64,000 nt of DNA from Flavobacteriales bacterium (GTDB lineage Bacteria; Bacteroidota; Bacteroidia; Flavobacteriales; UBA7312): NCBI GenBank assembly GCA_965277895.1, contig CBDIDR010000001.1:1121560-1185559 (forward strand). The letters are read 5' to 3'. The position numbers were made by a program, and so were the translations under genes. The notes under the pieces were generated by a model. That model was not told the DNA's origin. It saw only the letters and a program-made list of their open reading frames with translations, and did no database searches. The stretch's first letter is position 1, and each line of letters opens with the position of its first letter. Shown one piece after another: positions 12,957-49,150 of the stretch.

Positions 12957-14207
12957 TTATTCTATAATTATTTTCTTTTCTACTGAACCGTCATTATAAA
13001 TTTCAATTACTGGTTGATTTTTAACATTTGTCTTTCTGCCAAATAAATCAAATTCTGAAATTTTAAATTTATTAGTGAGCTTTAAATCATCTAAAGAAGT
13101 CATATTGCAATCTTCACTAAAAAAGTGTTGAGTATCTATTTCGAACCAATTTTCAGAAGACCATTGACTATCATCAACATTTATACAAAATAAATCAGGG
13201 TTATCTGTTAAATTAATAATCATCTCAGCATTATTTCCATTTCTTAAATCTAAACTATTCAGATTATTATTATCACATCTAAAATCTTCTAATAAGATAT
13301 TCGATGATAAATCAATTTGAGTTATTTGATTCTCAAAACACCACACTTGAACAAGTCCAGTATTAGAAGAAATTTCTAATTCGGTTAGATTGTTTTGATG
13401 AACATATAGTGTATCAATAAGTAAATTATTACCAAGGCTTAAAAATGAAATTTGATTATTTCTACAATTTAATATATTTAAATTCATATTTAAATGTAGA
13501 TTGAGTGTAGTTAGAAAGTTGCTATGGCATAATAGTATTTCAAGATTTGTATTATTAAATAGATTTAAATTTTCTATTTCATTATCACCACAATTTAAAT
13601 AAGTTATTTCGGGGTTTTGATTTAAGTTCAATTCTATTAGCTGATTATTTCTAATATCTAACTCTTTTAATAAAGTATTATTTTCAAGATTAATTTCAGT
13701 AATTTGGTTGTTTCTCAGGTGTAAAAATTCCAATCCCAAACAATTGTTAACAATGATACTTTCAAGATTATTGTTGTTTCCATTAATATCCACTAGATTT
13801 AGGTTAGTATCAAAATTGATAGTTTGAAGATTGTTTGATGAAAAATCAATAGAAATTAAATTAATGTTGTTGTCTAAATTTATAATTTCAATACCGTTAG
13901 AACTTATATCTAACTCCGTTAAGTTATTATTTTGACTTAAATCCACATTATCTAGAAAATTGTTGCTGATATTTAAAATTTCTAGATTAGTAAAATCTTC
14001 AATTCCAGTGATGTCAAAAATCATTAAGCAGTTTAAATCTAGTAATGATACTGCTTCAATATTTGCAGTAATTACAGAATCATCCAATATATCATCTAGT
14101 CCTAAATCGATAAGTGCTTGTTCAAAGTTATCGTCTGGAATAAATGTTTGTTGACATAACCCAACATATGGAATCAACAAAATGACTAGAGTAATAATTG
14201 CTTTCAT
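12957..14207 (-). CDS. Secreted leucine-rich-repeat protein with a short variant T9SS-like C-terminal tail
   Basis: Start moved to ATG 14207 (MKAIITLVILLIPYVGLC|Q signal; TAGATTTG at 14229-14236); IPDDNFEQALIDLG cap; ~21-aa LRRs; tail DLFGRK...IEIYNDGSVEKKIIIE. Confidence 0.85.
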   Translation of the reverse strand: MKAIITLVILLIPYVGLCQQTFIPDDNFEQALIDLGLDDILDDSVITANIEAVSLLDLNCLMIFDITGIEDFTNLEILNISNNFLDNVDLSQNNNLTELDISSNGIEIINLDNNINLISIDFSSNNLQTINFDTNLNLVDINGNNNNLESIIVNNCLGLEFLHLRNNQITEINLENNTLLKELDIRNNQLIELNLNQNPEITYLNCGDNEIENLNLFNNTNLEILLCHSNFLTTLNLHLNMNLNILNCRNNQISFLSLGNNLLIDTLYVHQNNLTELEISSNTGLVQVWCFENQITQIDLSSNILLEDFRCDNNNLNSLDLRNGNNAEMIINLTDNPDLFCINVDDSQWSSENWFEIDTQHFFSEDCNMTSLDDLKLTNKFKISEFDLFGRKTNVKNQPVIEIYNDGSVEKKIIIE

Positions 14208-14348
14208 ATTTGAATCGATAAGTTCTCTCAAATCTAACAATTTAGTTTGAATAGGGCAGTACAATAGTAGTACTTATGAAAAGACCTTAGGAGCGAACTA
14301 TTACGTCACTAAGTTTATTGGTAGTGATAAGATTGAGTGGGATGTATT

Positions 14349-14377
14349 AAAAAACCCCCACTAAAAAGTGAGGGTTT
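14349..14377 (-). terminator. Intrinsic terminator for the DoxX pair
   Basis: On -: aaaccctcact-tttt-agtgggggtttttt; the single mismatch is a G-U pair only on the minus strand. Confidence 0.7.
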
Positions 14378-14412
14378 AGTTTCAAATAAATGAAATATAA
14401 TTCTAGATTTTG

Positions 14413-14778
14413 TTAGACGTAATTAAATAAAACAAATATTAGTAAAATTAATATGCTGAATGCTGGAAGAGACTTCTTGATTGGGTCTTTTACTTTAAAA
14501 TGCATTGCTAGAGCTCCTAGCATTAACAAAATCATAGACGATACTACATAAATATTAATTTGTTGTTTCCATACCCCAACGATTAATAAAATTGCAAGAA
14601 TGACTTTGATTGTGCCAATTATGTACATAAACCAATTTGGAAGACCATATATGTGAAATTCTTCTTTTAATGAAGTTGCATCCCCACCTCTATATGGTGT
14701 TTTATTATTAAAACGTAGTAACCACACATTTAAGATTGAAAGTGATACTATTAAATTGATGTAAAGTATATAATCCAT
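14413..14778 (-). CDS. DoxX family membrane protein
   Basis: 4 hydrophobic segments, EEFHIYGLP, GALAMHFKVKDP. Confidence 0.75.
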   Translation of the reverse strand: MDYILYINLIVSLSILNVWLLRFNNKTPYRGGDATSLKEEFHIYGLPNWFMYIIGTIKVILAILLIVGVWKQQINIYVVSSMILLMLGALAMHFKVKDPIKKSLPAFSILILLIFVLFNYV

Positions 14779-14790
14779 ATTTTTATTTTT

Positions 14791-15165: not shown

Positions 15166-15380
15166 TTATTGAATACTTATTAAGAATAATTCCTTTTAAA
15201 AAACTATTTAGTTTTTTGTTATGTCCAACAAATAAAGTGCAAAAAAACATAAGATTTACTTATTGCATCCTTAAGTTTATTGATTACAACAAGACTGATC
15301 TATTTATATTAAACTTTAATTAAATCAAAAGTTTTTTACTTTGACAACTAATACTATTTTTGTCTTGATTAAAACATACG

Positions 15381-16403: not shown

Positions 16404-16457
16404 GCATAAAATAGATAGATTTTTCTGATGCCTTCTCAATCAAAAATTGAGGCTTAA

Positions 16458-16658: not shown

Positions 16659-16685
16659 CGATAACTAATACTGAAACAAGAGGAT

Positions 16686-17087: not shown

Positions 17088-17096
17088 CTTGTAAAA

Positions 17097-17261: not shown

Positions 17262-17277
17262 ATTTTTAGTGTTTTTT

Positions 17278-18573
17278 TTATTGGAGTATCAGTTTGTGAT
17301 TGCTTATGCCGTAAGATGTTTTAATAGTTAGGTTATAAACCCCTGTCGAGTAGTTAGATAAGTCTATTTGAGTATAAAACTCACCAATAGATTGGGTTGA
17401 TTCAATATATACTTGTTCACCTAAAACATTAGTCACTATAATTTCAGATTTAGAATCTGTGTTAAGTTCTAGATTGAAAATGTTTGAAGATGGGTTAGGA
17501 TATATATTAATATCTAAGTTAGTTTCATTGATAGAAGTAGCATTACAATTAGCTTCACATTCTTCTAGAGATTGATACATTCCTGAACCATCCATAGGGT
17601 CTGTACAAGCATCTTCAATGCAGTTCCAGCTATCTTCAACTACACCAGAGCAATTGGCTTCACATTCTTCTAGTGATTGATACATTCCTAAACCATCCAT
17701 AGGATCGACACAAGCATCTTCAATACAGTTCCAGCTATCTTCAACTACACCAGAGCAACTTGCATCACATTCTTCATATGTAAAAAACTCTCCTGAACCA
17801 TCCATTACTACCAAGCATTCGCCAGGTGATATACAATCATAAGTGATTTGAATTATTGTTTCACACATAAATTCACATTCTTCAAGAGAGTCGAATTCTC
17901 CTTGACCACTCATATCTTCAAAGCATGACTCATCCATACAATACCAAGAACTTTCGTTATCGCATTCAACCCATTCAGAAGCATCAAAGGAAGCAGACTC
18001 AAGGTTAATTATACCATCTGGTCCTGATAAAGAAAAAGAATTTGGAGTAATATTTAAGACTTCCACATTTATTTCAAAGCCATCATCAAATAAAGTCATA
18101 GAATTTCCATTTAATTCATAGGTATATTCTTCGAGTTCATAACAGTCTTCTTCATCAAATATATATATAGTAAAATTGTTGGAGGTAATTTCTACATAAT
18201 CGCCAATATCGGCATACCATTGACCTTGTATTGGATTTCCTTGAACAGTAATAGTTCCTTTCATACCCATTTGAACATGAGGTGTGCAGACATAATAGTG
18301 TGTCCCAACTTCCTCAAATACAACATAACCATCCGAATATAACTCAAAACCTCCATTGGATGCAGTGCCATCACTGTTGTACGTCTCTTCAGATACTTCA
18401 ACAGCATTATGTGAGCTTAAGTTTTCAAAGTAAACGGTATCTCCTAGATTTATAGTTAAGTCTGAGGGACTGAAAATCATATAATCTGTTGCATCAACAT
18501 TGTGTGATGTTGGAGTTTGTGCAATAGAAATAAATGGAAATAATAAAACGAATAAGGTGTATAAAGGTTTCAT
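17278..18573 (-). CDS. T9SS-secreted protein with an N-terminal cupredoxin (type-1 copper) domain and four-Cys repeats
   Basis: Signal SIA|Q; FSPSDLTINLGDTV, HNAVEV, YYVCTPHVQMGMKGTITV; 4 Cys-rich units; type A CTD IYPNPS...HKLILQ; TATATTTG at 18596-18603 on -. Confidence 0.85.
   Translation of the reverse strand: MKPLYTLFVLLFPFISIAQTPTSHNVDATDYMIFSPSDLTINLGDTVYFENLSSHNAVEVSEETYNSDGTASNGGFELYSDGYVVFEEVGTHYYVCTPHVQMGMKGTITVQGNPIQGQWYADIGDYVEITSNNFTIYIFDEEDCYELEEYTYELNGNSMTLFDDGFEINVEVLNITPNSFSLSGPDGIINLESASFDASEWVECDNESSWYCMDESCFEDMSGQGEFDSLEECEFMCETIIQITYDCISPGECLVVMDGSGEFFTYEECDASCSGVVEDSWNCIEDACVDPMDGLGMYQSLEECEANCSGVVEDSWNCIEDACTDPMDGSGMYQSLEECEANCNATSINETNLDINIYPNPSSNIFNLELNTDSKSEIIVTNVLGEQVYIESTQSIGEFYTQIDLSNYSTGVYNLTIKTSYGISNHKLILQ
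17546..17757 (-). repeat. 2 x 105-bp near-identical coding repeat (SGVVEDSWNCIEDACxDPMDGxGMYQSLEECEANC)
   Basis: Direct comparison of the copies at 17546 and 17651. Confidence 0.9.
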
Positions 18574-18649: not shown

Positions 18650-20329
18650 TTATTCTAAAATAATTTTTTTCTGAACTGACCCATCTTCATATATATAAAA
18701 GAGAGGTACATTGACTTTAGGTAAACTTATTTGGCCCAAAACATTAACGATTTTACTCAACTTTTTGTTTGTAAAAGAGGGGGTGTTTAGATTACTCATC
18801 CCACAGCTTTCTAAGCATTCATTTATTGAATTATATTCAATAGTATCCGTGCTAATTTCACAGTCGATTGAATTGCATTTCCATCCTGCATTAGCCAAAA
18901 TTTTAATGCTTTTAAAACAAACGATTTCAATATTATTAGAATTTCTGATGTAGTGGCCATCAGTCAAATAATCTCCATAATACGATAGTGTTGAAGTATC
19001 GTTTAAAAATTCTAAATCTTCAATAATGATATAGTTTTTATAGGTGCTTATTTTGGTGCTATCAATACTTAATCCATTGTATTTGAAATCATTTGCGAGT
19101 TCATCACTTTGCAGTTCAATAGAATTTGTTACTATAACTACATTATCAATTCCTATTTGGTAGGCTTGAAAGTCATATGGAGCATCTATTTCTGAATTTG
19201 AGGAATAGCCATACACATCCCTTTTTACTAGATTAAATAGTCGATTTCCAAACTCTTCATACCCATTGCTAAATGTGAAATGACAGTTGTCAGTATGGTG
19301 CTGTAAACTTGCTGTTGGAATTATTGATATAGTTTCATTTTCTAAGGCTAGTTGCCTTTGTGCTTCTTTTATATCCATTAATTTTTCAATGGGTTTATTG
19401 CATCCGTTTTTTGTTTGAAAAATATAGATGTGCTCTAGATTTTGAAAATCATCCTCCCATGATTCTTGAAGTTGCAAAAACGCATTTTTGTAGGCTTCTG
19501 TATCTATTGCTATTCCATTTTCTATTGTCAGAGGACTATTAACGTTTGAATCGTATTCACCTTGAGACCAGAAAACAGCTTTTACAAAATCTTGAAGTTT
19601 ATTTTTGGCCAAGCGATAGTATAATTTTGAGTAAATACTTTCAAGTTCAGTCTGATAATTTGTTGGGGCTAAAAAACTGTTTATTCCTGTTCCGCTTAAT
19701 GATTGGTTAAAAATAGCTACTGGAAAACCTAGAGAATCAACAAGATGTTTAGCAAATCGTAATCCCCATTGTCCAGTATTTCCATTTGTTTCTGTATCTC
19801 CATCACCTTGTCCATAATACCATTGATGATTTTCAATTAATAAATCTATGCTATCCGTACTTAAGGAATAAACTCTAATAAAATTATTTTGAAACTCTTG
19901 AGAGCTGCCATTTTCCATTTTTGCCTGAGCATTGGATTGTCCTTGAATTACAAATACATCTCCACAAACAATATTTATAATGTTCAATTCTAGGGTACTG
20001 TCGTTGCCAAAATGACTGTATAGATTCACAGAATAGTTCATTAATTCTGCTGCAATTGTTATTTCAAAACTGAAAAATGTAGTGCTATCGTCAAAAGATA
20101 AATTTTGAGTCTGATACTCATGTAAATCATCTTCTCTATTAACAATGATAGAAATAGAACTATATGCTAATTCTGAATTATAAACTTCTCCAGCAATATT
20201 GAAGGTGCCAGAATTCGTTAAATCGTCTCTACCAATTAATTGATTATCTAAGGGATACTCAGTTAATACAACTTGAGAATACAAATTAATAGATAGTAAA
20301 CTTAAGAATACTATTAGCTTAATTTTCAT
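18650..20329 (-). CDS. Secreted SGNH carbohydrate esterase (SASA/CE6-like) with short variant tail
   Basis: Signal LYS|Q; GDVFVIQGQSNA, WSQGEYD, DNCH; tail NVLGQ...FYIYEDGSVQKKIILE. Confidence 0.8.
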   Translation of the reverse strand: MKIKLIVFLSLLSINLYSQVVLTEYPLDNQLIGRDDLTNSGTFNIAGEVYNSELAYSSISIIVNREDDLHEYQTQNLSFDDSTTFFSFEITIAAELMNYSVNLYSHFGNDSTLELNIINIVCGDVFVIQGQSNAQAKMENGSSQEFQNNFIRVYSLSTDSIDLLIENHQWYYGQGDGDTETNGNTGQWGLRFAKHLVDSLGFPVAIFNQSLSGTGINSFLAPTNYQTELESIYSKLYYRLAKNKLQDFVKAVFWSQGEYDSNVNSPLTIENGIAIDTEAYKNAFLQLQESWEDDFQNLEHIYIFQTKNGCNKPIEKLMDIKEAQRQLALENETISIIPTASLQHHTDNCHFTFSNGYEEFGNRLFNLVKRDVYGYSSNSEIDAPYDFQAYQIGIDNVVIVTNSIELQSDELANDFKYNGLSIDSTKISTYKNYIIIEDLEFLNDTSTLSYYGDYLTDGHYIRNSNNIEIVCFKSIKILANAGWKCNSIDCEISTDTIEYNSINECLESCGMSNLNTPSFTNKKLSKIVNVLGQISLPKVNVPLFYIYEDGSVQKKIILE

Positions 20330-20350: not shown

Positions 20351-23300
20351 TTATTGAAGAATAAGTTTGTGATTTTTTATTCCATCCGTGGTTTCGATAC
20401 TTAGGTTGTAAACTCCTTTTGAATAGCCTGATAAATCAATCTTAGTATCAAACGTTCCTTTAATTTCTAGAGAATTCTCATAAACTTCTTGACCAATAGA
20501 ATTTACAACTTTCATATCAACTATTTGACGTTCTGAGATGTCAAAGGATATATTAAACTCTTTTCTTGAAGGGTTAGGGTATACCATCAGATTCTGCAAA
20601 TTTGATAATTTTTCGCCACCTAAAACGTAGTATACAGTTGATGAAAATGGAGTAGCAAATGAGGTTCCGTTTGTTCCACAAGCCCCACGTATTTTCCAAG
20701 AAATTTCATCTCCAGAACTTTGATTGAATTTAGTTTTAGAATTATCAGTTCCAGGAATATTGTTCCATTCGTAAACGTCACCACTAGTAATATTTGTCAT
20801 TTCTAAGAAGTAATGGTCTGGGTTTCCACTTGGTGGCGTATCCCAAGACATTATTACAGCCGTATTAGCTCCATTTGAACTTGTACTTAAGTTTATAGGC
20901 ATCTTATCGCAAGGGTCTTCAGTAGTAAAGTTTGAGAATTCGCCCCATCCTGAATGATACATTGGGTCTGAATTACCGTCTTCATCTACATTTGCTGTAC
21001 ACCATGCTTTGGTATGCCATTCATAATTAGTAGATTCTGTAAAGTTTCCTTTTAAGGAGTTTATATTTCCATTATCATCTCCGTTAACATAGCGGTAATT
21101 TGTTGATCCAAATTCTCGAATCTTTCCTTTGGATTGCCATACGCCCCATTCTTGAGAAGGTGCATCAGCGAAGAAGGTTACCCAATTTGCTTCAGTAAAT
21201 ACCGACAGATTTTCAAGGTTAGCACAAGCGGCTAGAGTAGTGTACTCAGAAGTTGCTGACCATGCCGATTGACAATCTATTGATAAGTCATCATTTAATA
21301 CTCTAGCTCTTATGGACCATTCGTAAGTAGTGGCTGGTTCCATAAAGTAACGTGTTCTGCTCGTTCCGTAATAGGCTTGTGTGTTTACAGGACCTGCCGT
21401 AATTACTGTCCAACTATTAGTGCCTAACTCTCGGTACCTTATCATGTAGTGAGAAGGAGCTACTTCAGTAGGTGACCAATTGAATCGTATTCTGTTATCG
21501 ATAATATTATCAACAAATAAACCATTTGGAACACTGTCGCATGGCGAAACTGTTACAGAGGAACAGTTTGCTTCACATTCTTCTAGTGTAGAGTAGGAGT
21601 CATCTACTACAGAAGATTCAACACACCCTAGATTTGTACAATTAAAATAAACTGTTGGCTCGTAAATTGTAAATAATGTTTCAGCCACACATCCTGTTAC
21701 AGCGTCAAATACAGCAACTGTATAAATGCCGGCTGTTAAACCAAATGGATTTTGAGGGATAAAGTTTTCATCAAATACATTTAAGCTGTATTGAGCTGAA
21801 CCACCAATACCAGAAGCAAATACATAACCATCATTACCACCAACTTCTGAAACATCCGAACTAGCTGTTATTATTATTGAAAATGATTCACAATAAACAC
21901 AGCTTCCATCGTCCAATGTTGCATTTGGATTAAAATTATCAGCAATTGGGTCAATACAGCCACAGTTTTCAATGGTTAATTCTAAAACTTCAATTATATC
22001 ACAACCAACAGAATTAATTGAATAGTTGTAATAGGTTCCGCTTTGGTAGTAAGTTGTTCCGTACCATTCAAAACTACCACATGCCACAATTGAAGTATTA
22101 GTTTCAGTGCTTTCTAAAATAGTTAAGTTCAGGTTAACAACACTATCACAACCAACTGAGTTTGTTAATGTGAAAGTTGGAGAGTTTGTGTTTTCTGTGT
22201 AGCTTATACCATCAATCCAAGTATATTCATCACAAGATACTATAGAGTCTATTCCGTATGTGGTCTCTAGTAATGATAAGTTAATAGTATAGACACTGTC
22301 ACATCCGTTAATACTAGAATAAATATTAGTGTAAACACCACTTTCTATGTATGTACTATCGTCCCATACAAAGGCGTCACATGATGTAATATTTGTATCT
22401 AAATTATAACTATTGTAGATAGTCAGATTTAGTGTAACTAATGAATCACAACCCACAGAATTAGTTAATGTGTAAGTAGGGGAGCTAGTACTTTCTGTAT
22501 AAGTAATACCGTCAATCCAAGTAAACTCATCACAATGCTCTTCTACATCTGTTCCACTATTACTATTGAGAATAGTTAAGTTAATAGTATGAGTACTATC
22601 ACAACCATATGTAGTTGTATAATTATTAATGTAACTACCACTTTCAGTATATGTGGAATCATCCCAAATAAATACATCACAAATACTAATGTTTTCAAAA
22701 GTATTTGCGGAATTATTGATAGTAAGATTAAGTGTTACTATACTATCACATCCAATAGTATTGATGTAATTATTAGTGTATGTGCCAGTAGAAGTATAGG
22801 TGCTGTCGTTCCATATGAATTCATCACAATGCGTTTCATTAATAAATGTACTGTCAGATTCTAATATACTTAGGTTAAGGGAAACTACACTATCGCAACC
22901 CACAGAATTAGTTAATACATAAGTAGGGGAACTAGTACTTTGCGTATAGGTTATACCGTCAATCCAAGTATAGTTATCGCAATGTACTTGAGTATCTGTA
23001 CCACTAGAACTGTTAAGAATCGTTAAATCAAGGGTATTGGTGCTATCACAGCCGTTTGAGTTTATGTAACTATTGGTATAAATACCACTTTCGGTATATA
23101 CAGAACCTTCCCAAACAAATTCATCACAAGCAGTTATTTGAGCAAATGAGCTATCAGAATAATAGATACTTAGATTTATGGTGTGAGAACTGTCACATCC
23201 TTCTACATTGGTGTAGTAATTGGTGTAAATACCACTAATAGTATAGGTGCTGTCGTCCCATACTAATTGGTCACAGTGTGTTTCATTAGTAAATGTACTG

Positions 23301-38400: not shown

Positions 38401-40059
38401 ACAGATTCAGCAACATTTGTATTAATCAATTCAGTTGGATGTGATAGTACAGTAACACTTGACCTTACGATTAACTACTCTGATAGTACATTTAGTAACA
38501 TTACAGTTTGTGATGCATTTGTATGGGATAGTATAACTTATACAGAAAGTGGTATTTATACCAATAGTTACATCAATAGCTTTGGTTGTGATAGCACTCA
38601 TACACTTGTTCTAACAGTAGATGAGACCACATATGGAGTAGATGAAATTATTGAGTGTGATGAGTTTACTTGGATTGATGGTCTGACTTATACAGAAAGT
38701 ACTGATTCAGCAATGTTTACTTTAACAAATGCTGAGGGGTGTGATAGTATAATTACATTAAACTTAACAATTCTTGAAAGTTCATCTTCATTATCTGTGG
38801 TTTCTGAATGTTATAGTTATTCATGGAATGATTCAACTTACACCCAAAGTGGAACATATATTTTTGAAACTACAGGACAAAATGGATGTGATAGTTTAGC
38901 CACACTTGAATTAACAATCAATAATAGTACAAGTGGGGTAGATGTTCAAGAGTCTTGTGATGAGTTTACTTGGATTGACGGTATAACCTATACGGAAAGT
39001 ACTGATTCAGCAACATTTGTATTAATCAATTCAGTTGGATGTGATAGTACAGTAACACTTGACCTTACGATTAATTACTCTGATTCTACTTTCGAATCAT
39101 TTACTGCCTGTGATTCTTATTCATGGAATGGAATTAATTGTATCGCTAGTGGTATGTATTACTATACCACTTCAAATTCACTTGGTTGTGATTCAACAGT
39201 AACATTAGATCTTACTATTATTAATAGTTCATCATCCATTGCAGACGTAATTGCTTGTGACAGTTATTTTTGGAATAATGAGCTATATACAGAAAGTGGT
39301 ACCTACACTGTAAATACATTCAATGTTGAAGGCTGTGATTCTACTGCTACTTTAAACTTAACTATTAATGGCCCTAGTACATCAACAGATTATGTAAGCA
39401 CCTGTGAAGCTTATCAGTGGAATGGTGAAGTATACTTTGAAAGTGGTACATACACCTATAATTCTATAGACATCTTTGGTTGTGATTCTATTGCAACATT
39501 AGAGCTTGAAGTATGTACACTTGAAGAACTAATAATTGATGGATTTAATAGTGTTGATACAGAATCTTCGGTTACATATTCTGTTCAAGAAAATTTAGGT
39601 TCATCCTATTTTTGGACTATTTCTAACTTAGGATTTATTTCTTCAGGTCAGTTTACTAATGAGATTATTGTAGATTGGTCAATTATCGAAGGTAACTCAA
39701 CTATTTGTGTAACTGAATCTAGAGATTGTTTCGGTCTGGACTGTGAAGGTGATACATATTGTACAAATATTGAAGTTAAAGATGTTGTTGGAATTGAAGA
39801 TATTTCTAGTGATTTTATCGAAATATACCCTAATCCTACTAGAGGAATATTTAACGTTTCAATACAACTTAACAATTTACAAAATGTGAGTTTAGAATTA
39901 GTAAACTCATTGGGTGAATTATTTTCTGACAAGAATTTAGGTGAATCAAAAGGTGAGCTTAACGAGTCATTTGATTTATCAAATCAGCCATCAGGTATAT
40001 ACTTATTAAGAATATCATTAGATGATAAGGTGATTACTAGAAAAGTAACATTGAATTAA
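32479..40059 (+). CDS. Giant (2526 aa) T9SS surface protein made almost entirely of 46 GCDS repeats, plus an Ig/PKD-like domain and type A CTD
   Basis: Signal SFS|Q; one GCTD motif; 46 modules counted; GSSYFWTIS..GQFTNEIIVDW; IYPNPT...SGIYLLRI...RKVTLN. Confidence 0.9.
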   Translation: MKHFTKYIFLLFLFFNATVSFSQGPSISEVISGCTDSEACNYNPEANTDDGSCVEQSMFTLTVETCEEEFLWYDTIRTTSGTYVIPANDTLSCDSILELTLLQNYSTTSDTTVCDEFVWEEDTITSSGLHTKSFTAENGCDSTHTFNVTVNTSTYTFSEETACGSYFWPTDQQEYFQSGTYQFEYTNSNECPSLVELDLTINETYYIIDTIVEVCDSYTWRGETYFQTGTFAKEFQSQNNCDSIIILDLTIYNSDTTESDITVCDEFVLQGNTYTTSGVYFTAGLENINGCDSTHFYNVTINSTEYETDFKQICSDSYTWINGVTYFDNNNTDQVILTNGASGTCDLIVTLDLIFLEPSSSVQTVDTCNSYQWIDGITYTESTDSAIFITENSVGCDSVITLNLTIYNSDTTSSNITSCNEYTWEDSTYTESGSYTKTLLNQNSCDSIHTLNLIINYSDSTFSDITVCDEFVWQGDTYTESDTVTKTLTNSNGCDSVHTYFLTIIESSFGTDIQESCDAFTWIDGISYTESTNSPTFILENSVGCDSVVTLDLTINYSDSTFSDTTVCNAFVWDDSTYTASGLYTNEYINANGCDSTHTFNLIVNYSDTIFVDSTVCDVFVWLGDTYTESDTITKTLENSNDCDSVVTIDLTIVNSSLTTFIDSTVCNELFWEDSTYTESGTITRTFTNSVGCDSVVTLNLTVYEDNFSISTAQVCDSYFWNDSIYTESGIYTFEATGQFGCDSVATLELTILEKSYSTDTRFECDTLIWLDGNTYTASNNTATYTIEDGNSNGCDSIITLDLTIHEVDSISSDTTVCDEFIWEGVTYTESDTITRTLVASNGCDSIHTIILTVNETTFGIDIQEHCEEYEWIDGNTYDESNNTATFTLTNSLGCDSIVTLDLTILESSSSFTSASACDSYLWNDSLYTESGLKTFITTNVAGCDSIARVFLTINESTSGIDTQIHCDEYTWIDGITYTESTNSVTDTLLNALGCDSVVTLDLTINYSDSTFSDTTVCDVFVWGDSTYTESGLYTHEFENVNECDSTHTINLIVNYSDSTFSDTTVCDVFVWDGDTLTVSNSYTKLYTNSNGCDSTHTVNLTVNESTFGTDVQVHCDEYIWIDGITYTESTDLATFVLTNSVGCDSVVTLDLTIYYSDSTFSDTTVCNVFVWGDSTYTESGVYTQDFENVNDCDSTHTVNLIVNYSDSTFSDTTVCDVFVWDGDTLTVSNSYSKLYTNSNGCDSTHTYNLTVNESTSGTDIQVHCDDFTWIDGITYTESTDLATFVLTNSVGCDSVVTLDLTIYNSDSTFSDTTVCDVFVWGDSTYTESGVYTQDFENVNDCDSTHTVNLIVNYSDSTFSDTTVCDVFVWDGDTLTVSNSYTKLYSNTNGCDSTHTYNLTVNESTSGTDIQESCDEFTWIDGITYTESTDSATFVLINSVGCDSTVTLDLTINYSDSTFSDTTICDDVFVWDDSTYIVSGQYANEYVNSFGCDSIHTVNLTINYSDSTFSDTTVCDVFVWDGDTFTVSNSYTKLYTNSNGCDSTHTYNLTVNESTSGTDIQESCDEFTWIDGVIYTESTDSATFVLINSVGCDSTVTLDLTINYSDSTFSDTTVCDAFVWDDSTYTTSGLYTNEYTNANGCDSSHTVNLIVNYSDSTFSDTTVCNVFVWGDSTYTQSGVYTHEFENVNECDSTHTINLLVNYSDSTFSDTTVCDVFVWDGDTLTVSNSYTKLYSNANGCDSTHTYNLTVNESTFGTDVQESCDEFTWIDGITYTESIDSATFVLINSVGCDSTVTLDLTINYSDSTFSDTTVCDAFVWDDSTYTTSGLYTNEYTNANGCDSSHTVNLIVNYSDSTFSDTTACNVFVWGDSTYTQSGVYTHEFENVNECDSTHTINLLVNYSDSTFSDTTVCDVFVWDGDTLTVSNSYTKLYSNANGCDSTHTYNLTVNESTFGTDVQESCDEFTWIDGITYTESTDSATFVLINSVGCDSTVTLDLTINYSDSTFSNITVCDAFVWDSITYTESGIYTNSYINSFGCDSTHTLVLTVDETTYGVDEIIECDEFTWIDGLTYTESTDSAMFTLTNAEGCDSIITLNLTILESSSSLSVVSECYSYSWNDSTYTQSGTYIFETTGQNGCDSLATLELTINNSTSGVDVQESCDEFTWIDGITYTESTDSATFVLINSVGCDSTVTLDLTINYSDSTFESFTACDSYSWNGINCIASGMYYYTTSNSLGCDSTVTLDLTIINSSSSIADVIACDSYFWNNELYTESGTYTVNTFNVEGCDSTATLNLTINGPSTSTDYVSTCEAYQWNGEVYFESGTYTYNSIDIFGCDSIATLELEVCTLEELIIDGFNSVDTESSVTYSVQENLGSSYFWTISNLGFISSGQFTNEIIVDWSIIEGNSTICVTESRDCFGLDCEGDTYCTNIEVKDVVGIEDISSDFIEIYPNPTRGIFNVSIQLNNLQNVSLELVNSLGELFSDKNLGESKGELNESFDLSNQPSGIYLLRISLDDKVITRKVTLN
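35820..36700 (+). repeat. Imperfect duplication with 447-bp period
   Basis: Anchor gattgacggcattacatataccgagagtacagacttagc at 35841 and 36288; boundaries approximate. Confidence 0.8.
37207..38465 (+). repeat. Near-perfect tandem repeat, about 2.1 x 594 bp (198 aa, four modules)
   Basis: Anchors at 37207/37801/38395 and 37741/38335; only isolated substitutions seen (T>I, V>A). Confidence 0.88.
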
Positions 40060-40440: not shown

Positions 40441-41463
40441 TTACGGAGTAACTATTTTGAATACTGTAGAACGTGCAGCAGCTCTTTCTAATATAGTATT
40501 GGCATTTTGAGATTGACTTTCACCAATTGAAATACTAATCAATTGATTTGGATTTACACCTTTACTTACTAAAAACTTTTTAGCATTATCAGCTCTACGC
40601 TGACCCAAATCAAGGTTATATTCCTCTGAACCAATTTTATCAGCTCTTCCAGTTATTTTAAGCTTATAATTAGTGTTCGACTTTAAAAAGCCAACAAAAT
40701 TCATAAGTTTAGCTTTTTCTGAATTAGATAATTCTGCACTATTGTATTTATTACTTAACTTATTGTCATCACAAAGTTTATTGTAATCAACTTTAGGTTT
40801 TGTTTCTGTTTTCGGTTTTACTTTCTCAACAACTTTAGGTGTTGTAGGTTTTGGAGTAACTTTCTTTGTTGGTTCACTAACTTTGACCGTTGTAGAAGTA
40901 AAATTCTTTGATGAAGGTACTTTTGGCTTCTCTACATTTTTATTTACTATAACAGAGCTTGCTTGTTTGTTCACTTCAATTACCTCTGTTTCCTTAGCTT
41001 TTTTCTTCTTTTTACCAAATAGTTCATAATTAACTGTAAGTGTTGGGCCATGTGTGATTGAATAACCAGCAGTAAAAGTAAAAGGATTACTTACAGGGTG
41101 GAACGCTACAGCTACTTCTTTTCTAAAACTTTCTGTTGAAAATAATGATGCATTAGTTAATCCAGTTGCAGCTTGTAAGGAAAAGTTATCGTTCAATCTA
41201 TATGTTAAACCTAACAAATCAACATAATCACCATTTCCATTGTCTATGTACTCAAAAGTATAATAAAGTCCAAATCTATCTAAAATTAAATCTCTACTAG
41301 CAAGTTGGAATCTGTAAAAGTTAAAATTTTCTTCAGTGAAGAATAAACCTATACCAACACCTGCTTCAAGTTTTTTATCTTTTGAAATAAAAGGCTTCTT
41401 CGATTGAGAAAAAGATGCACTTGAAAAGAATAATATAATTAGAAGTGTTAAGATGTGTTTCAT
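40441..41463 (-). CDS. OmpA family outer-membrane protein (barrel-like N-domain, Lys/Pro linker, peptidoglycan-binding domain)
   Basis: Start moved to ATG 41463 because TATATTTG at 41488-41495 overlaps the listed TTG start; GRADKIGSEEYNLDLGQRRA, ISIGE. Confidence 0.85.
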   Translation of the reverse strand: MKHILTLLIILFFSSASFSQSKKPFISKDKKLEAGVGIGLFFTEENFNFYRFQLASRDLILDRFGLYYTFEYIDNGNGDYVDLLGLTYRLNDNFSLQAATGLTNASLFSTESFRKEVAVAFHPVSNPFTFTAGYSITHGPTLTVNYELFGKKKKKAKETEVIEVNKQASSVIVNKNVEKPKVPSSKNFTSTTVKVSEPTKKVTPKPTTPKVVEKVKPKTETKPKVDYNKLCDDNKLSNKYNSAELSNSEKAKLMNFVGFLKSNTNYKLKITGRADKIGSEEYNLDLGQRRADNAKKFLVSKGVNPNQLISISIGESQSQNANTILERAAARSTVFKIVTP

Positions 41464-41513
41464 TTTATGAAATTTGTTAAAGCGTTGCAAATATATAAAA
41501 AGCTAACCACTAA

Positions 41514-41931: not shown

Positions 41932-43266
41932 TTAATTTAAAATTAGTTTATGATGTTTTTCTGTATGTGCTGTCTTAATGACCACATGGTATAAACCAGA
42001 AGCATATGACGAAAAATCATATGTTTTTTTATAAGTATTAACTTGAGTGTCTGAAAAAGAATGAATCATTTTTCCAATGGGGTTATAAACTTCTACTGAA
42101 ATGTTTTGGGTGGTGGTAGAGTTTATATAAATTTCGAAAATATCATTGCTAGGGTTGGGGTATATAGAACTTTCAAAGTCTTTGTCAAATTCATTTATAC
42201 TAGCAGTGCTAAACTGAAAGGGAGTTGATAATTCTTCACAGCCTAAATCGTTACTTAACATTACGGTGTAGATACCAGTTGATTCTGGAAAGTAATATTG
42301 AGCGTTAGCACCTTGTATAATTTCATCGTTTAAAAGCCATTGATAATCATAACCAGACAAATCACAAAGTAACACTTGACCTTCAATAAAAATCTCTGGA
42401 GTAGGAAAAGATACATTGATATTAAAAGTATCTGCTGCCTCACAACCTTCATTATCATTAAAATATGCCATTATTTCTTCTGATGTATTTGCTTCATATA
42501 TCATTGGACTACCAGTGTATATTAAACTACCATTAGAGTTATACCATTCAACATTATTTGTATTCATGGGTTTAAATCTAATAGTTTGATTTTCGGCACT
42601 CCAAAGAGAAGAATTTCGATCTTCTACAGCTAAAGCAAATGTGCCGTATTGATTTTGAATTCCTTGAAGAGAGTTAGTGCATTCCGCTTTGTTAACTATT
42701 CTTATATCAATCCAGTTTGTAAAATTATGTAATGCAATTTGGAACGTACCAGCATATCCATCTTCCACTCCACAATTGTATGAGCTTACATCTTTGAATT
42801 CAATTACCATTTTATTATTCAAACTAGAGTATGAAACCTGACCTCCAGCATTAGGGTTCCAGTCTTCCCAAGCAGCAAATACACCTGCAAATGGACCACT
42901 CAAATTGGGGATTTCGTTTGAATTGTACCCATTTCCTGGTTCAATAAAGCTAATAAATCCGTTTGAAGAAATCCAGAATTGATGGTATACTTGATTATAG
43001 AAAGCAAATGGAAATCCAATATTGAAAGGTCCAAGAACTTCATCGTCACCAATTTCTTGGTTAACAGATTTTAATAAGGTGTCGTATTCTAACCCTAGAA
43101 TTTCAACAGAATAAGTATTCAGAAGCTCAATAGTTTCCTCATTTTCTATAATTGAGGCAATAGCCATTTGGTTTTGACAAATAGCAATATCATTAACCTC
43201 AATTTCGCATTGACAAAAAACATTTAATGAAAATACTAGCAAAGATAATGTTAATGAATATTTCAT
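41932..43266 (-). CDS. T9SS-secreted protein with a nidogen-like N-terminal domain and type A CTD
   Basis: Signal VFC|Q; GDDEVLGPFNIGFPFAFY...ISSNGFISF, WEDWNP; IYPNPS...HKLILN. Confidence 0.8.
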   Translation of the reverse strand: MKYSLTLSLLVFSLNVFCQCEIEVNDIAICQNQMAIASIIENEETIELLNTYSVEILGLEYDTLLKSVNQEIGDDEVLGPFNIGFPFAFYNQVYHQFWISSNGFISFIEPGNGYNSNEIPNLSGPFAGVFAAWEDWNPNAGGQVSYSSLNNKMVIEFKDVSSYNCGVEDGYAGTFQIALHNFTNWIDIRIVNKAECTNSLQGIQNQYGTFALAVEDRNSSLWSAENQTIRFKPMNTNNVEWYNSNGSLIYTGSPMIYEANTSEEIMAYFNDNEGCEAADTFNINVSFPTPEIFIEGQVLLCDLSGYDYQWLLNDEIIQGANAQYYFPESTGIYTVMLSNDLGCEELSTPFQFSTASINEFDKDFESSIYPNPSNDIFEIYINSTTTQNISVEVYNPIGKMIHSFSDTQVNTYKKTYDFSSYASGLYHVVIKTAHTEKHHKLILN

Positions 43267-45066: not shown

Positions 45067-45128
45067 TTGTTAATTCAATTTAGACGAAAGGACAAACCTA
45101 CAAAAATAAGTACATATTTAATACATTA

Positions 45129-48029
45129 TTAATGTTTTGTTACAATAAAGTTGCTTTCTGTATCATAAGAATAGATTTTCAGAAAATATATACCATTAGA
45201 CAAATGAGTAGTATTTATTGAAGGTGATGATGAAGATTCTAATTCATATTTAAATATAATTTGACCTAAAGAATTAGTAAGTTGAATATTATAAGTTTTG
45301 TCAATCAATCCATAAAGATTGATAGTATTAGTAAATGGGTTAGGAAAAACACTAATTACACCATCATTGCTTAGTCGTTCACCACCTAAAGTATAATATT
45401 CAAATTCTGAAAAGGATGTTGACCATGAAGTGCCATTTTCTCCACATGCTCCTTTAATTCTCCAAGAAAATTCATGACCCGAACTAAGTCCGAATTTAGT
45501 TTGTGAATTACTATTTCCATCAATGTTATTCCATTGGAACTGTTGGCCTGTCGTAAGGTTGTTTAACTCTAAAAAGTAATGGTCAGGATTACCACTTTCA
45601 GGAGTATTCCAATTCATAGTTAAGGTTGTTGCAGAAGAATTAGATGATGTAAAGAGTTCATTAGGGAGTTTATCACAAAGGTTTTCTGTAGAAAAATTAT
45701 GAAATTCTCCCCAGCCAGAATGGTACTCTAAATCTGATTCTCCATTTTGATTTTCATTTCCAAAGCACCATGCTTTAGTGTGCCATTGGTAGTCGGTATT
45801 TTCAATAAAGTTCCCTTTTAGTGTATTGATACTATTTTCACCAATTACGTATCTATAATTTTCTTGTCCAATCTCACGCATTTTACCCTTCACTTGCCAA
45901 ATAGAAGACTCCATTTCAGTAGGTGAATCGGCGTTAAATGTTACCCAATTGGCTTCTGTACTAACAGATTGATTTTCCAAATTAGGACATTCAGCTAATG
46001 TTGTAAAATAAGAGGATGCAGACCATTCAGACTGACAGTCAATGCTTAAGTCTGAATTTAAAACGCGACCTCTAATATTCCATATGTATGAAGTAGATGG
46101 CGTCATAAAATATCTATTTCTTGAGGTGCCACCGTATGTGTTATCATCAATTGCCCCAGCAGATATAACTATCCATTCTGATGAAGTTGTAGGTCTGTAT
46201 CTTATCATATAATGTGAAGGTAATTCTTCAGGCAAAGACCAATTAAAACGCACTCTATTGTGAATAATGTTGTCAACCGTTAGACCAGTTGGTGCATTAT
46301 CACAAGGTGAATTAGCATATTGACAAGAACCATCATCTTCAGTAGCTTGTGAATTATAGTTTAAGGCATTTTCATCTACACAGCCATAAACGCAACAGAT
46401 GCAAGAGCCATCATCTGTGTTTGCCAAAGGATTATAGTTAGGTGCATTGGGGTCGGTACATCCAAAAACTTCAACAAAACAAGGAAATTCATGAATTCCT
46501 AAGTTGCTCCAATCATTAGAGTTTAATACTATCCATTCTGAATTGTCAGAAGTAGTACCTGCTGAAGAATACCAATTGTCATTGCCTTCTTCAGTCGAAC
46601 ATTTTCTAACTAAAGTATGATCTTTTGTAGCATTGGATATACCTGCTACTGACCAGCCACTTCCAGGGTCACCATTCCAGTCGCCAATTATGTCAACTAT
46701 ACTATAACCACCTTCTTCTGGAGATGAATTTGAGGAAGGTTGATTGCCGTAAACTAATGCCATTCCATCATCACCATTACTCAGATGAGTTGTAGTCATA
46801 TCAGCTTGCTCTAAAATCTGTGCGTCAGAGGACGGATGAGCAACTATAAAAATACCGTTTGCCTCAACTGTTGAACCTGCATCAAAATAATGCCATGAGT
46901 CATACACTCCAACTTCTTCTGGAGAATTAACAACCAAAGCCAAAGCATAATCATCAAGGCTGACAGTACTTTCTGTTGGGTTATATATTTCTAGATATTT
47001 ATTATTAGAATTTCCTTCAGCATATTCAGAGAAAAATAGTGAAGCAAAAGAATCATTATTTTCATAAATACATGAACCGTCATCGTCAATAGCATCCGGA
47101 TTGTAATTGAGGGCTAAGGGGTCAGTACAACCATTATTATAAACCAGTCGAATACCTACTGGCATATGGTCGGTGATATAGCTATCGTAATTGTCAAAAC
47201 CACCAACAATATAGTTGTCCACTGGAATGGTCAGCACTTCGCCACCTTCGGAGTTTAAATCGTCAAATAGTTCATTAGTTACAAGTAAGTGGTCAATATG
47301 GCTTGGCCAGTTAGGAAATGAAAAGTTTTGAGGATTTCCGTTGGCAATATCAATATCTGCAAACAGATAGTTTTCCGAATCATCTATAAAATCTTGGAAT
47401 ACATTATCCTCATAATCATCTGTTAGCTCATCATTATAATCACCTAGAACGATAACATTTTCGTCTGGTAGATAAGTGTCAATATATGTTTTGATATAAC
47501 CAAGGGCTAACCATCGCCTATATTCTTCGTCCGAGCTGTCTGTAGTATCAAAATTACCATCTCCGCAGCATTTCAAGTGTATATTAATAACGTAATATTC
47601 AAAGTTATTTTTCTCTAGATGAATGAGGTAGGGGGAGCGACCAGCAAAAGCATAGTTATAAGTCTCTTCGGCATAAATTTTATATTCATCAATAACTGTA
47701 ACATCGTCTTTTACGGCATATGCTAGATTTATGCCTCCATAATTAGCATCTGAAACATATCCGCTATAACCTTCAATATTTGCTAGCATATTCTCGAATG
47801 CCATCATGTCGTTTATCTCTTGAAAACCAATCACTTCAGACTCCAATTCTATTATAATATCGGAAACATAGTTAATCGTTGTTTCACCATCTTTAGGGAA
47901 GCTTTCGAGGTTCCATGTGGCGACATCGAAGGTTTCTTCAGTACCAAAACTTAAGTCTGAAAGACTTTGTGCAAATGAAGAAAATGAAATAAATAGGAGT
48001 AAAAACAGATAGTTTTTAGCTAAAGACAT
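45129..48029 (-). CDS. T9SS-secreted DNase I-like (EEP) nuclease/phosphatase with lamin-tail domain, FN3-like triplet and type A CTD
   Basis: TWNLE, QEI, HLKCC, LGDYND, IDH, TDHMP; LFFSEYAEGNSNNKYLEIYNP; VFPNPF...GIYFLKI. Confidence 0.87.
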   Translation of the reverse strand: MSLAKNYLFLLLFISFSSFAQSLSDLSFGTEETFDVATWNLESFPKDGETTINYVSDIIIELESEVIGFQEINDMMAFENMLANIEGYSGYVSDANYGGINLAYAVKDDVTVIDEYKIYAEETYNYAFAGRSPYLIHLEKNNFEYYVINIHLKCCGDGNFDTTDSSDEEYRRWLALGYIKTYIDTYLPDENVIVLGDYNDELTDDYEDNVFQDFIDDSENYLFADIDIANGNPQNFSFPNWPSHIDHLLVTNELFDDLNSEGGEVLTIPVDNYIVGGFDNYDSYITDHMPVGIRLVYNNGCTDPLALNYNPDAIDDDGSCIYENNDSFASLFFSEYAEGNSNNKYLEIYNPTESTVSLDDYALALVVNSPEEVGVYDSWHYFDAGSTVEANGIFIVAHPSSDAQILEQADMTTTHLSNGDDGMALVYGNQPSSNSSPEEGGYSIVDIIGDWNGDPGSGWSVAGISNATKDHTLVRKCSTEEGNDNWYSSAGTTSDNSEWIVLNSNDWSNLGIHEFPCFVEVFGCTDPNAPNYNPLANTDDGSCICCVYGCVDENALNYNSQATEDDGSCQYANSPCDNAPTGLTVDNIIHNRVRFNWSLPEELPSHYMIRYRPTTSSEWIVISAGAIDDNTYGGTSRNRYFMTPSTSYIWNIRGRVLNSDLSIDCQSEWSASSYFTTLAECPNLENQSVSTEANWVTFNADSPTEMESSIWQVKGKMREIGQENYRYVIGENSINTLKGNFIENTDYQWHTKAWCFGNENQNGESDLEYHSGWGEFHNFSTENLCDKLPNELFTSSNSSATTLTMNWNTPESGNPDHYFLELNNLTTGQQFQWNNIDGNSNSQTKFGLSSGHEFSWRIKGACGENGTSWSTSFSEFEYYTLGGERLSNDGVISVFPNPFTNTINLYGLIDKTYNIQLTNSLGQIIFKYELESSSSPSINTTHLSNGIYFLKIYSYDTESNFIVTKH

Positions 48030-48100
48030 AGGTTAAATGTTAGTTATTGCTAAGTTAAGAAAAGCAAGTCTAATAAAATCATTTAAAACGTTAATAATCG

Positions 48101-48108
48101 TATTTTTG
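48101..48108 (+). promoter_or_regulatory. -7 promoter element only 4 nt before the ATG at 48113
   Basis: TATTTTTG-tggc-ATG. Confidence 0.5.
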
Positions 48109-48112
48109 TGGC

Positions 48113-49150
48113 ATGCGAAATACCTTAACAATTTTATCTCTCTTTATTTCTACCTTAACTTTCGGACAAAGTTTAAATGATCTTTTTTTTGGGGAAAGTG
48201 ATGCTTTTGAAGCCGTAACGTGGAACTTAGAGTTTTTTCCAAAAAATAATCAAACTACTATTGATTCAACTGCACTAGCAATTAGCCGATTGGATGCCGA
48301 TGTCTTTGCTTTACAAGAAATAGATGATGTCAATGCCTTTCAGCAATTAGCTAATAGTTTGCCAAACTATGAGGGCTACATTATTCCAGATAATTACGGA
48401 AATTTGACTTTAGCGTATTTGGTTAAAGAAAATGTAGAAGTCGTTAACCATATGTCCATTTATACTTCTTCTTCATATAATACTATGTTTGCTGGAAGAC
48501 CACCATATTTAATTCAGCTTATACATAACGGAACTACGTATTATTTAATCAATGTTCATTTCAAATGTTGTGGAGACGGCACACTCAACATATCTGACTA
48601 TTCTGATGAAGAATACAGACGACTTCAAGCATCAAATCAAATCAAAACGTATATAGATAGTTACCTGCCAGATGAAAATGTGATTGTTTTGGGTGATTAC
48701 AACGATTTGCTCGAAGAAGGAGAGTCCAATAACGTATTTCAGTCAATTATAGATGATTCGGAAAACTATCTATTTGCGGATATGTTAATAGCTCAACAAA
48801 CTAGCTCAAATTGGTCTTTTCCATCATGGCCATCTCATTTAGACCATATTTTGATTACCAATGAACTCATTGATGATTTCAATAATTCTTACAATAATGT
48901 TCAAACTATCTTGATGGATAATTATTTTTCAAATGGTTTTTATGGTTATGACAATTGTATTTCTGATCACCGACCAGTTGCTATCAAACTTTTTCAGACC
49001 CCATCAAATATAGAGGAGGAGAATAAGGCACCTTCAAAACTTAAAGGAATTCGTGATATACAGGGTAGAAAGACCCTTCCTCAATCAAATAATTTACAGT
49101 TTTATTACTATGAGAACGGAACTGTAGAAAAACATTTTATAATCAATTAA
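48113..49150 (+). CDS. Secreted DNase I-like (EEP) paralog with short variant tail
   Basis: Signal TFG|Q; TWNLE, LQEI, HFKCC, LGDYND, LDH, SDHRP; tail DIQGRK...YYYENGTVEKHFIIN. Confidence 0.87.
   Translation: MRNTLTILSLFISTLTFGQSLNDLFFGESDAFEAVTWNLEFFPKNNQTTIDSTALAISRLDADVFALQEIDDVNAFQQLANSLPNYEGYIIPDNYGNLTLAYLVKENVEVVNHMSIYTSSSYNTMFAGRPPYLIQLIHNGTTYYLINVHFKCCGDGTLNISDYSDEEYRRLQASNQIKTYIDSYLPDENVIVLGDYNDLLEEGESNNVFQSIIDDSENYLFADMLIAQQTSSNWSFPSWPSHLDHILITNELIDDFNNSYNNVQTILMDNYFSNGFYGYDNCISDHRPVAIKLFQTPSNIEEENKAPSKLKGIRDIQGRKTLPQSNNLQFYYYENGTVEKHFIIN

Follow-up and report, generated by a model that had tools for sequence, protein, structure and literature searches.

The segment between positions 12,957 and 49,150 of a 64,000-nucleotide stretch of DNA (hereafter the window, meaning the whole stretch analyzed) from an uncultured marine Flavobacteriales bacterium contains nine genes for secreted proteins, which probably form the largest cluster of type IX secretion system (T9SS) cargo in this genome. 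According to this interpretation, the nine proteins are mosaics of modules found throughout the genome and the clade, they end in either a long or a short C-terminal sorting signal (C-terminal domain, CTD), and the locus is not a self-contained shuffling system. The element of most interest is the short signal, a tail of 42 amino acids (aa) present in four of the nine proteins. On a narrow balance, the favored view is that this tail represents a separate, undescribed class of T9SS signal. It would derive from a type A CTD that lost four strands in small-genome, uncultured marine Flavobacteriales, independently of Prevotella intermedia, and in some families it would mark 36 or more proteins per genome, for the most part small hydrolases and binding proteins. 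The initial annotation, made from the sequence alone, had proposed the whole locus as the best candidate for an undescribed system; that proposal is narrowed here to the short sorting tail.

A Cluster of T9SS Cargo Genes

The genome studied (G000) comprises 1,806,078 bases in three contigs, with 35% GC, and whole-genome searches were run on our own calls of 3,084 open reading frames (ORFs) of at least 60 aa. Domain heads and CTDs were called with Pfam and NCBIfam models (TIGR04183 and PF18962 for the type A CTD), and module recurrences were tested with hidden Markov models (HMMs) built from the copies in the window and with blastp against the genome ORFs. The locus lies between a tRNA-Asp gene (11193-11269) and a SIS-domain, murQ-like gene (50066-50875). 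As the initial annotation had it, nine ORFs with signal peptides, named here by their first position, start at 12957, 17278, 18650, 20351, 30208, 32479, 41932, 45129, and 48113 (Table 1). All nine proteins have a hydrophobic N-terminus followed by Q, read by eye as a putative Sec signal peptide. The sequence also shows two features pointed out earlier, namely that 12957, 17278, and 20351 have similar signal peptides and that 17278, 20351, and 41932 share HKLILQ/N ends. In 12957, the first-start rule gives a TTG start with 19 extra residues; the true start is probably an internal ATG (MKAIITL...), at which the signal peptide begins.

The cut-off of the type A CTD models (TIGR04183/PF18962) is reached by 17278, 20351, 32479, 41932, and 45129. 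It is not reached by 12957, 18650, 30208, and 48113, which share a 42-aa C-terminal stretch, the short tail. The view of the region as a stretch of T9SS cargo stands for the nine secreted ORFs, with the reservations that DoxX, OmpA, and other genes are interspersed among them and that just five of the nine reach the type A models. The organism itself has the expected machinery, since SprA (2604 bits), PorV (481 bits), and PorU (1330 bits) all score over the curated cut-offs, which supports the earlier description of secreted, modular head-stalk-tail proteins of a T9SS organism.

In the whole genome, 58 proteins carry a type A CTD and eight carry the short tail, making 66 cargo genes whose ORFs cover 9.0% of all genome bases. 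Nine of the 65 cargo genes of contig C1 fall within the 36.2 kb of the locus, the densest such cluster in the genome. In 5,000 uniform placements the mean maximum was 5.3 (P about 0.003), so the clustering of cargo modestly exceeds chance.

The heads of these proteins belong to different families. Pfam recovers the Copper-bind cupredoxin of 17278, the SASA-family esterase of 18650, Laminin_G_3 and LRR in 20351, Kelch in 30208, and Exo_endo_phos for the EEP nucleases of 45129 and 48113, the former also matching LTD and fn3. These assignments of the initial annotation are upheld, with the exception of the "nidogen-like" head of 41932: the only Pfam match of that protein is its CTD, and since the head belongs to no Pfam family, the name is unconfirmed.

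Shared Modules and the Stalks of the Giant Proteins

Every recurrence of modules among the nine genes that had been noticed by inspection was recovered. The LRR cassette is present as one copy in 12957 and as two in 20351 (36-47% identity along some 350 aa); the four-Cys mini-domain (28 aa, usually just upstream of the sorting tail) in 17278 (four copies) and in 18650, 20351, and 30208 (one each); the GCTD linker, a two-Cys joint of 20 aa, in 20351, 30208, 32479, and 45129 (2, 3, 1, and 3 copies, respectively); and the GCDS stalk, made of two-Cys units of about 50 aa, in 20351 (31 units) and 32479 (46 units). The FN3-like triplet (FN3x3), which together with the CTD forms an end cassette, is shared by 20351 and 45129 (63% identity over 317 aa), and the EEP nuclease by 45129 and 48113 (54% over 275 aa). 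The small Cys-bearing joint modules have no Pfam family.

It is important to note that module sharing within a gene cluster does not by itself show local shuffling. In this genome every module except EEP is also found outside the locus. GCTD occurs in 109 copies in 19 ORFs genome-wide, of which nine copies in four ORFs are in the locus; four-Cys in 13 copies in 10 proteins; GCDS in 117 units in eight ORFs, another large array lying at C1 376-387 kb; FN3x3 in thirteen ORFs; and the LRR cassette in two further ORFs outside the locus. Only EEP is confined to the neighbors 45129 and 48113. Since the kit occurs genome-wide, the notion that it belongs to the locus is unsupported.

The degrees of kinship among the copies are mixed. 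FN3x3 of 20351 is 72-79% identical to the copies in eight full-length ORFs elsewhere, compared with 63% to that of 45129, and a maximum-likelihood tree places the copy of 45129 with that of the G004 orthologue (100/100), separated from all remaining copies by the deepest split. For the LTD of 45129 and the 86-aa domain of 20351, the blastp relatives lie solely outside the locus, and the nearest relative of three of the four short tails is a tail at C1 373 kb, also outside. On the other hand, local kinship is retained by the EEP pair, to a slight degree by the LRR cassettes (43-47% within the locus versus 35-42% outside), and to some degree by the GCDS units (median best identity of 69/59% between the two giants versus 53% to the distant array), and the CTDs of 17278 and 20351 are near-best matches to each other (50%). 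These likenesses of EEP, LRR, CTD, and GCDS are read here as traces of old local duplication.

A different pattern is seen in the end cassette formed by FN3x3 and the type A CTD. Over 1.0-1.5 kb, this cassette shows 94-98% DNA identity across five dispersed genes (C1:394893-396392, or L138:4996-6495; C1:627452-628951, or L139:1-1500; C1:421176-422675; C1:621288-622491; and C1:406807-407811) and 85% in two more, a pattern suggestive of gene conversion or else of a very recent spread. With this near-identical set, the 20351 copy shares just 77% DNA identity.

The two giant proteins, 20351 and 32479, owe their length to stalk repeats. From its N-terminus, 20351 consists of LamG, two LRR cassettes (27242-29326), GCTD, the 31 GCDS units (21968-27172) with a second LamG inserted, another GCTD, the 86-aa domain, four-Cys (21563-21646), FN3x3 (20582-21556), and the type A CTD (20354-20587). 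An AlphaFold2 (AF2) model of a three-unit GCDS stretch is an all-beta rod with a predicted local distance difference test score (pLDDT) of 90. Compared by Foldseek with the PDB, it retrieves stem fragments of GhpA in 8 of the 13 top-ranked rows (best E 3.8e-4). GhpA is described as a T9SS-secreted grappling hook of Aureispira whose stem has 52 small disulfide-linked Ig-like repeats behind an N-terminal hook (bioRxiv 10.1101/2024.01.29.577165). The modeled resemblance, though weak, fits a head-stalk-tail organization of the giants.

These repeats also raise the possibility that the giants are contingency genes, in which gain and loss of a 447-nt superunit would vary the length of the stalk between cells or strains and, in place of module exchange, supply the variation of the locus. 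Both genes do contain tandem arrays with a period of 447 nt (in 20351, 4.2 copies with 92% identity; in 32479, 4.5 copies with 86%), and most GCDS units have their nearest neighbor within their own gene (24 of 31 and 35 of 44, respectively). In the distant paralogous array, the median best identity of units is as high as 97%. Nonetheless, copies that are 86-92% identical are not very recent, and a period of 447 nt is in frame, hence no on/off switching would result. As the main source of variation this mechanism is doubtful, and it would add to the interpretation of the cluster as mosaic T9SS cargo rather than exclude it. The distant array itself (C1:376017-387230, outside the window) is spread over four consecutive same-strand ORFs with 36 GCDS units, which have the appearance of a single giant gene broken up by frameshifts or by misassembly of the repeats.

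The Short C-Terminal Tail

The short tail forms the last residues of all eight genome proteins that carry it, and all eight have signal peptides. Its relation to the type A CTD is best seen in orthologues. Among Kelch orthologues of 55-75% identity, those of G000, G004, and G007 have four-Cys and the short tail, that of G028 has the short tail with no four-Cys match, and those of G010, G013, G016, and G018 have two four-Cys and a type A CTD. The same exchange is apparent in the nuclease 48113, whose 120 best homologues comprise 60 with the short tail (340-351 aa), 20 with a type A CTD (370-402 aa), 24 with a dockerin-like end, 14 long forms ending with the EEP domain, and two fragments. Judged from such sequence comparisons, the short tail takes the place of the type A CTD in orthologues.

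In MAFFT alignments, the short tail aligns to the type A CTDs of the Kelch orthologues with two internal deletions, which remove the first strands and the middle hairpin. Four residues invariant in the tail (G15, Y30, G33, and K37) align to the corresponding strands of the orthologues' CTDs. The tail row of G016 (L020:1781-1906) was left out of the tail alignment (A2). The AF2 model of 48113 (pLDDT 87) shows the EEP domain, a linker with pLDDT below 50 at residues 299-302, and finally three strands, at 310-314, 328-333, and 338-343, lying in blocks whose pLDDT is about 90. Taken together, the short tail looks like a type A CTD reduced to three strands, namely the G-loop strand and the last two strands (motifs B, D, and E).

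Distribution of the Short Tail

Searched against 1.84 billion representative proteins, a profile of 11 tails retrieved 3,776 clusters at E ≤0.001 (1,301 at E ≤1e-10), almost all of them from five families of uncultured Flavobacteriales. Of the 150 best matches, 143 have the tail ending exactly at the C-terminus; a second set gave 109 of 110. A second profile search found 2,931 tail proteins among 8,000 candidates scored, and PF18962 appears in none of the 120 matches listed from it. The proteins bear diverse heads (LRR, PKD, cupredoxin, beta-lactamase-fold, PHB-depolymerase esterase, and Omp28), and their source names are either "hypothetical" or describe the head. A word-based search with the tail of 48113 alone gave just two matches.

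In terms of genomes, the tail occurs in 81 of 201 in an order-level sample. It is present in every sampled genome of the five families (20/20, 2/2, 22/22, 16/16, and 17/17), whose genomes measure 0.8-2.3 Mb and in some cases contain at least 36 copies, compared with 3 of 123 genomes of the other families of the order and 2 of 300 other genomes in a phylum-level sample (one copy each). The listed metagenome-assembled genomes (MAGs) with the tail are mostly labeled Flavobacteriales, Cryomorphaceae, Crocinitomicaceae, uncultured Weeksellaceae, or Bacteroidota. Three tail loci (L043, L071, and L098) come from a MAG labeled Thalassomonas, a gammaproteobacterial name; this is probably a mislabeled or contaminated bin.

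Modeled Docking of the Tail on PorV

Structure prediction of the short tail together with PorV supports binding between the two. The complex model scored 0.91 in three of three runs, and the best of three controls scored 0.00; the partners have a pLDDT of 82 or more, and 93% or more of the contacts recur between runs. The inputs were our own alignments, with 20 rows for the PorV of this genome and 11 rows for the tail. In the calibration of the score, 58 of 80 solved complexes attained this mark, as did 2 of 110 mismatched pairs, counts that hold roughly here because own alignments were used. The tightest contacts in the model come from tail residues 12-19, the loop with the invariant G.

A second PorV/PorQ-family protein (L106, C1:1671354-1672391; 128 bits, cut-off 90) is encoded in the genome, adjoining a 1373-aa ORF (C1:1672404-1676525) whose C-terminus weakly matches PorU. 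As a shuttle dedicated to the tail it was rejected: it is found in all five tail families and also in families without the tail (7/7, 5/5, 7/7, 2/2, and 1/1), so it is not tail-specific.

Could the tail serve some purpose other than T9SS secretion, for instance as a small anchoring or binding module or as the signal of another pathway, placed at the C-terminus as dockerins are? In favor of such a role, no curated CTD model matches the tail, and the genome encodes a second PorV/PorQ-family protein. The nuclease head, moreover, also bears a dockerin-like end, which means that C-terminal modules of differing function are swapped on that head. Still, this alternative appears improbable, given that the tail is strictly terminal, stands exactly where close orthologues have the type A CTD, can be aligned with the conserved strands of that CTD, and contacts PorV in the docking model by way of the conserved-G loop. 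The second PorV/PorQ paralogue is also present in families that lack the tail and is not specific to it.

Related Genomes and the Question of Local Exchange

The comparison with relatives shows that architectures are not fixed, contrary to what the initial annotation had named as grounds for rejecting its proposal. Synteny could be followed partly; the contigs of G002, G004, G005, G009, and G016 break off no more than a few kb from the anchor genes. In G004, whose flanking proteins are 93% identical to those of G000, the right half of the locus is found in the order E1 dehydrogenase, murQ, SDR-like gene, and the orthologues of 48113 (82%), 45129 (74%), and 41932 (77%), followed by DoxX, OmpA, and the orthologue of 32479; the order of modules is conserved as well, except that the 45129 orthologue is without one GCTD copy. 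G016, from a different genus, keeps murQ, the SDR-like gene, and the orthologues of 48113 and 45129.

The Kelch head is more mobile, with three architectures and two genomic positions among relatives. In G004 the gene has the same architecture and lies beside the 32479 orthologue, while in G005, G010, G013, G016, and G020 it stands beside orthologues of G000 genes at 1.33 Mb. In G005, the Kelch domain sits inside an ORF that measures at least 918 aa and whose N-terminal head is 37% identical to a 611-aa protein of G000 and has a zinc-protease-like HExxH motif, as read by eye. In the five congeners, whose assemblies are fragmented, the 945-aa head of 20351 was not found, save for one LRR match in another gene, nor was the SASA head of 18650. 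The cupredoxin head is represented in G004 by a 278-aa protein at a different locus, with no match to the module HMMs. By these comparisons, shuffling is visible between genomes, at linker modules, rather than within the locus. In G005 (L014, C9:1-9200), the murQ side is joined via a DoxX gene to orthologues of the G000 genes at 422-425 kb, which adjoin another cargo cluster in G000; this junction points to rearrangement at cargo clusters.

Within the locus, DNA repeats of at least 85% identity and at least 200 nt are limited to the tandem arrays within 20351 and within 32479, and none was found between different genes. By the same thresholds, the locus shows no sign of recent exchange with other parts of the genome. 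Inversion or cassette exchange between the divergent giants was considered and rejected, as the arms of their inverted repeats are just 71-75% identical. No recombinase family is present among the Pfam matches of the scanned ORFs of the locus, with 15381 and 49153 lying outside the scan. The combination of near-identical inter-gene repeats and a recombinase that characterizes shufflon-like or cassette-exchange systems is accordingly not seen in the locus.

These results bear on the claim of the initial annotation that the kit is locally shuffled, in the sense of an active, recombining toolkit in which heads, stalks, and tails pass among neighboring genes. That claim is not sustained, and it must be regarded as highly improbable: the density of cargo, the good or best paralogues that the EEP pair, the LRR cassettes, the CTD and signal peptide of 17278 and 20351, and the GCDS of the giants have within the locus, the repeats through which recombination between the divergent giants could invert the Kelch gene, and the left half not found in congeners are outweighed by inter-gene shared DNA below 85% everywhere, by two FN3x3 copies that are the most distant pair of their tree, by closer or sole relatives elsewhere for the tails, LTD, the 86-aa domain, and GCTD, by the right half that is syntenic in G004 with nearly the same modules, and by the lack of a recombinase family in the scanned ORFs.

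Weight of the Evidence, Proposed Route, and Implications

Several observations weigh against the interpretation of the locus as mosaic cargo with long or short CTD signals. The short tail has no Pfam or NCBIfam match, even at E-values up to 10, and is missed by the curated CTD models. Aligned by hhalign to a profile of the 58 CTDs of the genome, it gives 14 aligned columns and 17% probability, a match weak enough that homology to the CTD rests on the alignment of orthologues. Its terminal position is also imperfect in places, as the G004 orthologue of 48113 has five residues beyond the tail and 7 of the 150 best matches do not end exactly with it. All 79 listed loci from named records are MAGs. 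CTD-PorV complexes have already been modeled and solved, and the good score of the PorV-tail model may reflect likeness to these known structures instead of binding by this copy. G028 has 26 tail matches, yet PorV was not found in it at E up to 1e-40. With regard to the giants, the match of GCDS to GhpA is weak (TM-score of 0.40 by query length and root-mean-square deviation of 8-11 Å), no PorP-like gene was matched among the scanned ORFs of the locus, and both giants carry type A CTDs, unlike GhpA. Finally, the assemblies of relatives break at repeats, and absences in them are therefore weak evidence.

If the interpretation as mosaic T9SS cargo is correct, each protein would cross the inner membrane by Sec, and in the periplasm its C-terminal signal (a type A CTD of 75-80 aa in five proteins and the 42-aa short CTD in four) would be recognized. 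The cargo would then pass through the SprA translocon, be handed to PorV, and finally be released or fixed to the surface by PorU. This route is proposed on the grounds of homology, of the swaps among orthologues, and of the structural models. From their domain families, the giants would be adhesive LamG/LRR heads on rigid repeat stalks, and the small proteins, namely two EEP nucleases, an esterase, a cupredoxin, and a Kelch protein, would serve scavenging. The diversity of the set, as far as comparison of sequences shows, appears to stem from tandem amplification within genes, from old duplications, and from relocation of heads and exchange of tails at linker modules between genomes.

Should the short tail constitute a signal class of its own, the T9SS secretomes of these bacteria would have been under-counted. 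The prediction of cargo relies almost entirely on CTD models, and, if the tail works, these would miss four of the nine genes of the locus, eight of the 66 in the genome, and dozens per genome in some families. A short tail used beside a long CTD may also decide the fate of the cargo, for example release rather than anchoring. In addition, the tail would add a second lineage in which a minimal, three-strand signal occurs naturally, and this bears on the question of which CTD parts are needed by PorV and the translocon.

Other Genes and Coordinates of the Region

The coordinates of the nine cargo genes and of the OmpA-like gene are collected in Table 1. The non-cargo genes within the locus are three DoxX genes, one OmpA-like gene, and two ORFs without a Pfam family (16686 and 43308), and the ORF at 15381 appears transporter-like when read by eye. 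The DoxX-family membrane-protein genes are interspersed among the cargo genes, including those at 14413-15165 and 41514-41927; orthologues of the latter adjoin 41932 in G004 and lie near murQ in G005. The ORF at 43308-44591 (minus strand, 427 aa) has no signal peptide and no Pfam or NCBIfam family, and its absence between the orthologous neighbors in G004 implies an insertion in G000 or a loss in G004. The OmpA-like protein has a Lys/Pro-rich linker, and its gene is placed tail-to-tail with the giant 32479, a position also kept in G004. It could be a candidate anchor of the surface fiber, although its 45 bits fall well short of the PorE cut-off of 600; it is the only such gene nearby, and no PorP-like or PorE-like anchor was recognized among the scanned ORFs.

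Table 1. Cargo genes, the OmpA-like gene, and the short tail of 12957, with positions in the window.
Feature	Position	Strand	Basis
LRR protein with short tail	12957..14264	-	LRR_4 match; LRR cassette 43% identical to that of 20351
tailS, 42-aa short C-terminal tail of the 12957 protein	12960..13085	-	tail HMM
Cupredoxin, then 4 four-Cys (17545-17946) and type A CTD (17281-17508)	17278..18573	-	Copper-bind, Por_Secre_tail, TIGR04183
SASA-family esterase, then four-Cys (18803-18883) and short tail (18653-18778)	18650..20329	-	Pfam and module HMMs
3236-aa giant	20351..30061	-	Pfam, NCBIfam, module HMMs, blastp
Kelch propeller, GCTD x3, middle domain, four-Cys (32137-32220), short tail (32245-32370)	30208..32373	+	Pfam, module HMMs
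2526-aa giant: GCTD, 46 GCDS units (32644-39516), pre-CTD domain, type A CTD (39820-40056)	32479..40059	+	
OmpA-like peptidoglycan-binding protein	40441..41490	-	OmpA match; synteny beside 32479 orthologue in G004
Protein with head of no Pfam family and type A CTD (41935-42168)	41932..43266	-	76.5% orthologue in G004
EEP nuclease (47130-47969), GCTD, LTD, GCTD x2, FN3x3 (45351-46319), type A CTD (45132-45353)	45129..48029	-	
EEP nuclease (48167-49012), flexible linker, short tail (49022-49147)	48113..49150	+	Pfam, tail HMM, AF2 model

Comparison with Known Systems

Taken as a whole, the proteins of the locus resemble ordinary multi-domain T9SS cargo as reviewed in PMC10202324, with a signal peptide, variable domains, Ig/FN3-like spacers, a CTD, and many paralogues. 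They differ from it in their high density in a small genome and in the Cys-bearing joint modules without a Pfam family. The giants, for their part, weakly recall adhesins of the GhpA/SprB type in apparently having an N-terminal head, dozens of disulfide-bearing, Ser/Thr-rich repeats, and a C-terminal T9SS signal. Compared with GhpA as it is described in the preprint, they depart from it in their two-Cys repeats of about 50 aa, in the LamG and LRR heads that stand in place of a hook, in the type A CTD, and in the absence of a PorP-like neighbor among the scanned ORFs.

With regard to the signal, the same review distinguishes CTDs of types A, B, and C and reports that, in the case of one CTD, the final 22 residues are enough to bring about secretion of green fluorescent protein (PMC10202324). 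The short tail shares with the type A CTD its C-terminal position behind a linker, its occurrence on Sec-exported T9SS cargo, its interchangeability in orthologues, and the aligned conserved strands; it is distinguished by having half the length, by being without the first two strands and the middle hairpin, and by the lack of any HMM match. The closest known counterpart is found in P. intermedia, for which 48 short CTDs of 40-55 aa have been described (PMC11969387). Their three strands correspond to strands 3, 6, and 7 in the long form, and motifs B, D, and E are retained; they are cleaved and glycosylated, and they have been modeled in PorV like the long CTDs. P. intermedia is stated there to be the only species reported with both kinds of CTD (PMC11969387), and the literature searched yielded no report of short CTDs outside this species.

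Judging from that description, the tail studied here is like P. intermedia's short CTDs in size, in three-strand shape, in position, and in modeled docking on PorV; in both, the G-loop, the tyrosine strand, and the basic final strand appear to be kept, and long CTDs of 70-80 aa coexist with the short ones. The two are unlike in lineage, Flavobacteriia as opposed to Bacteroidia, and they appear to form different sequence families. The P. intermedia tails were largely found with HMMs for ordinary CTDs, whereas the present tail is missed by TIGR04183 and PF18962 at E-values up to 10.

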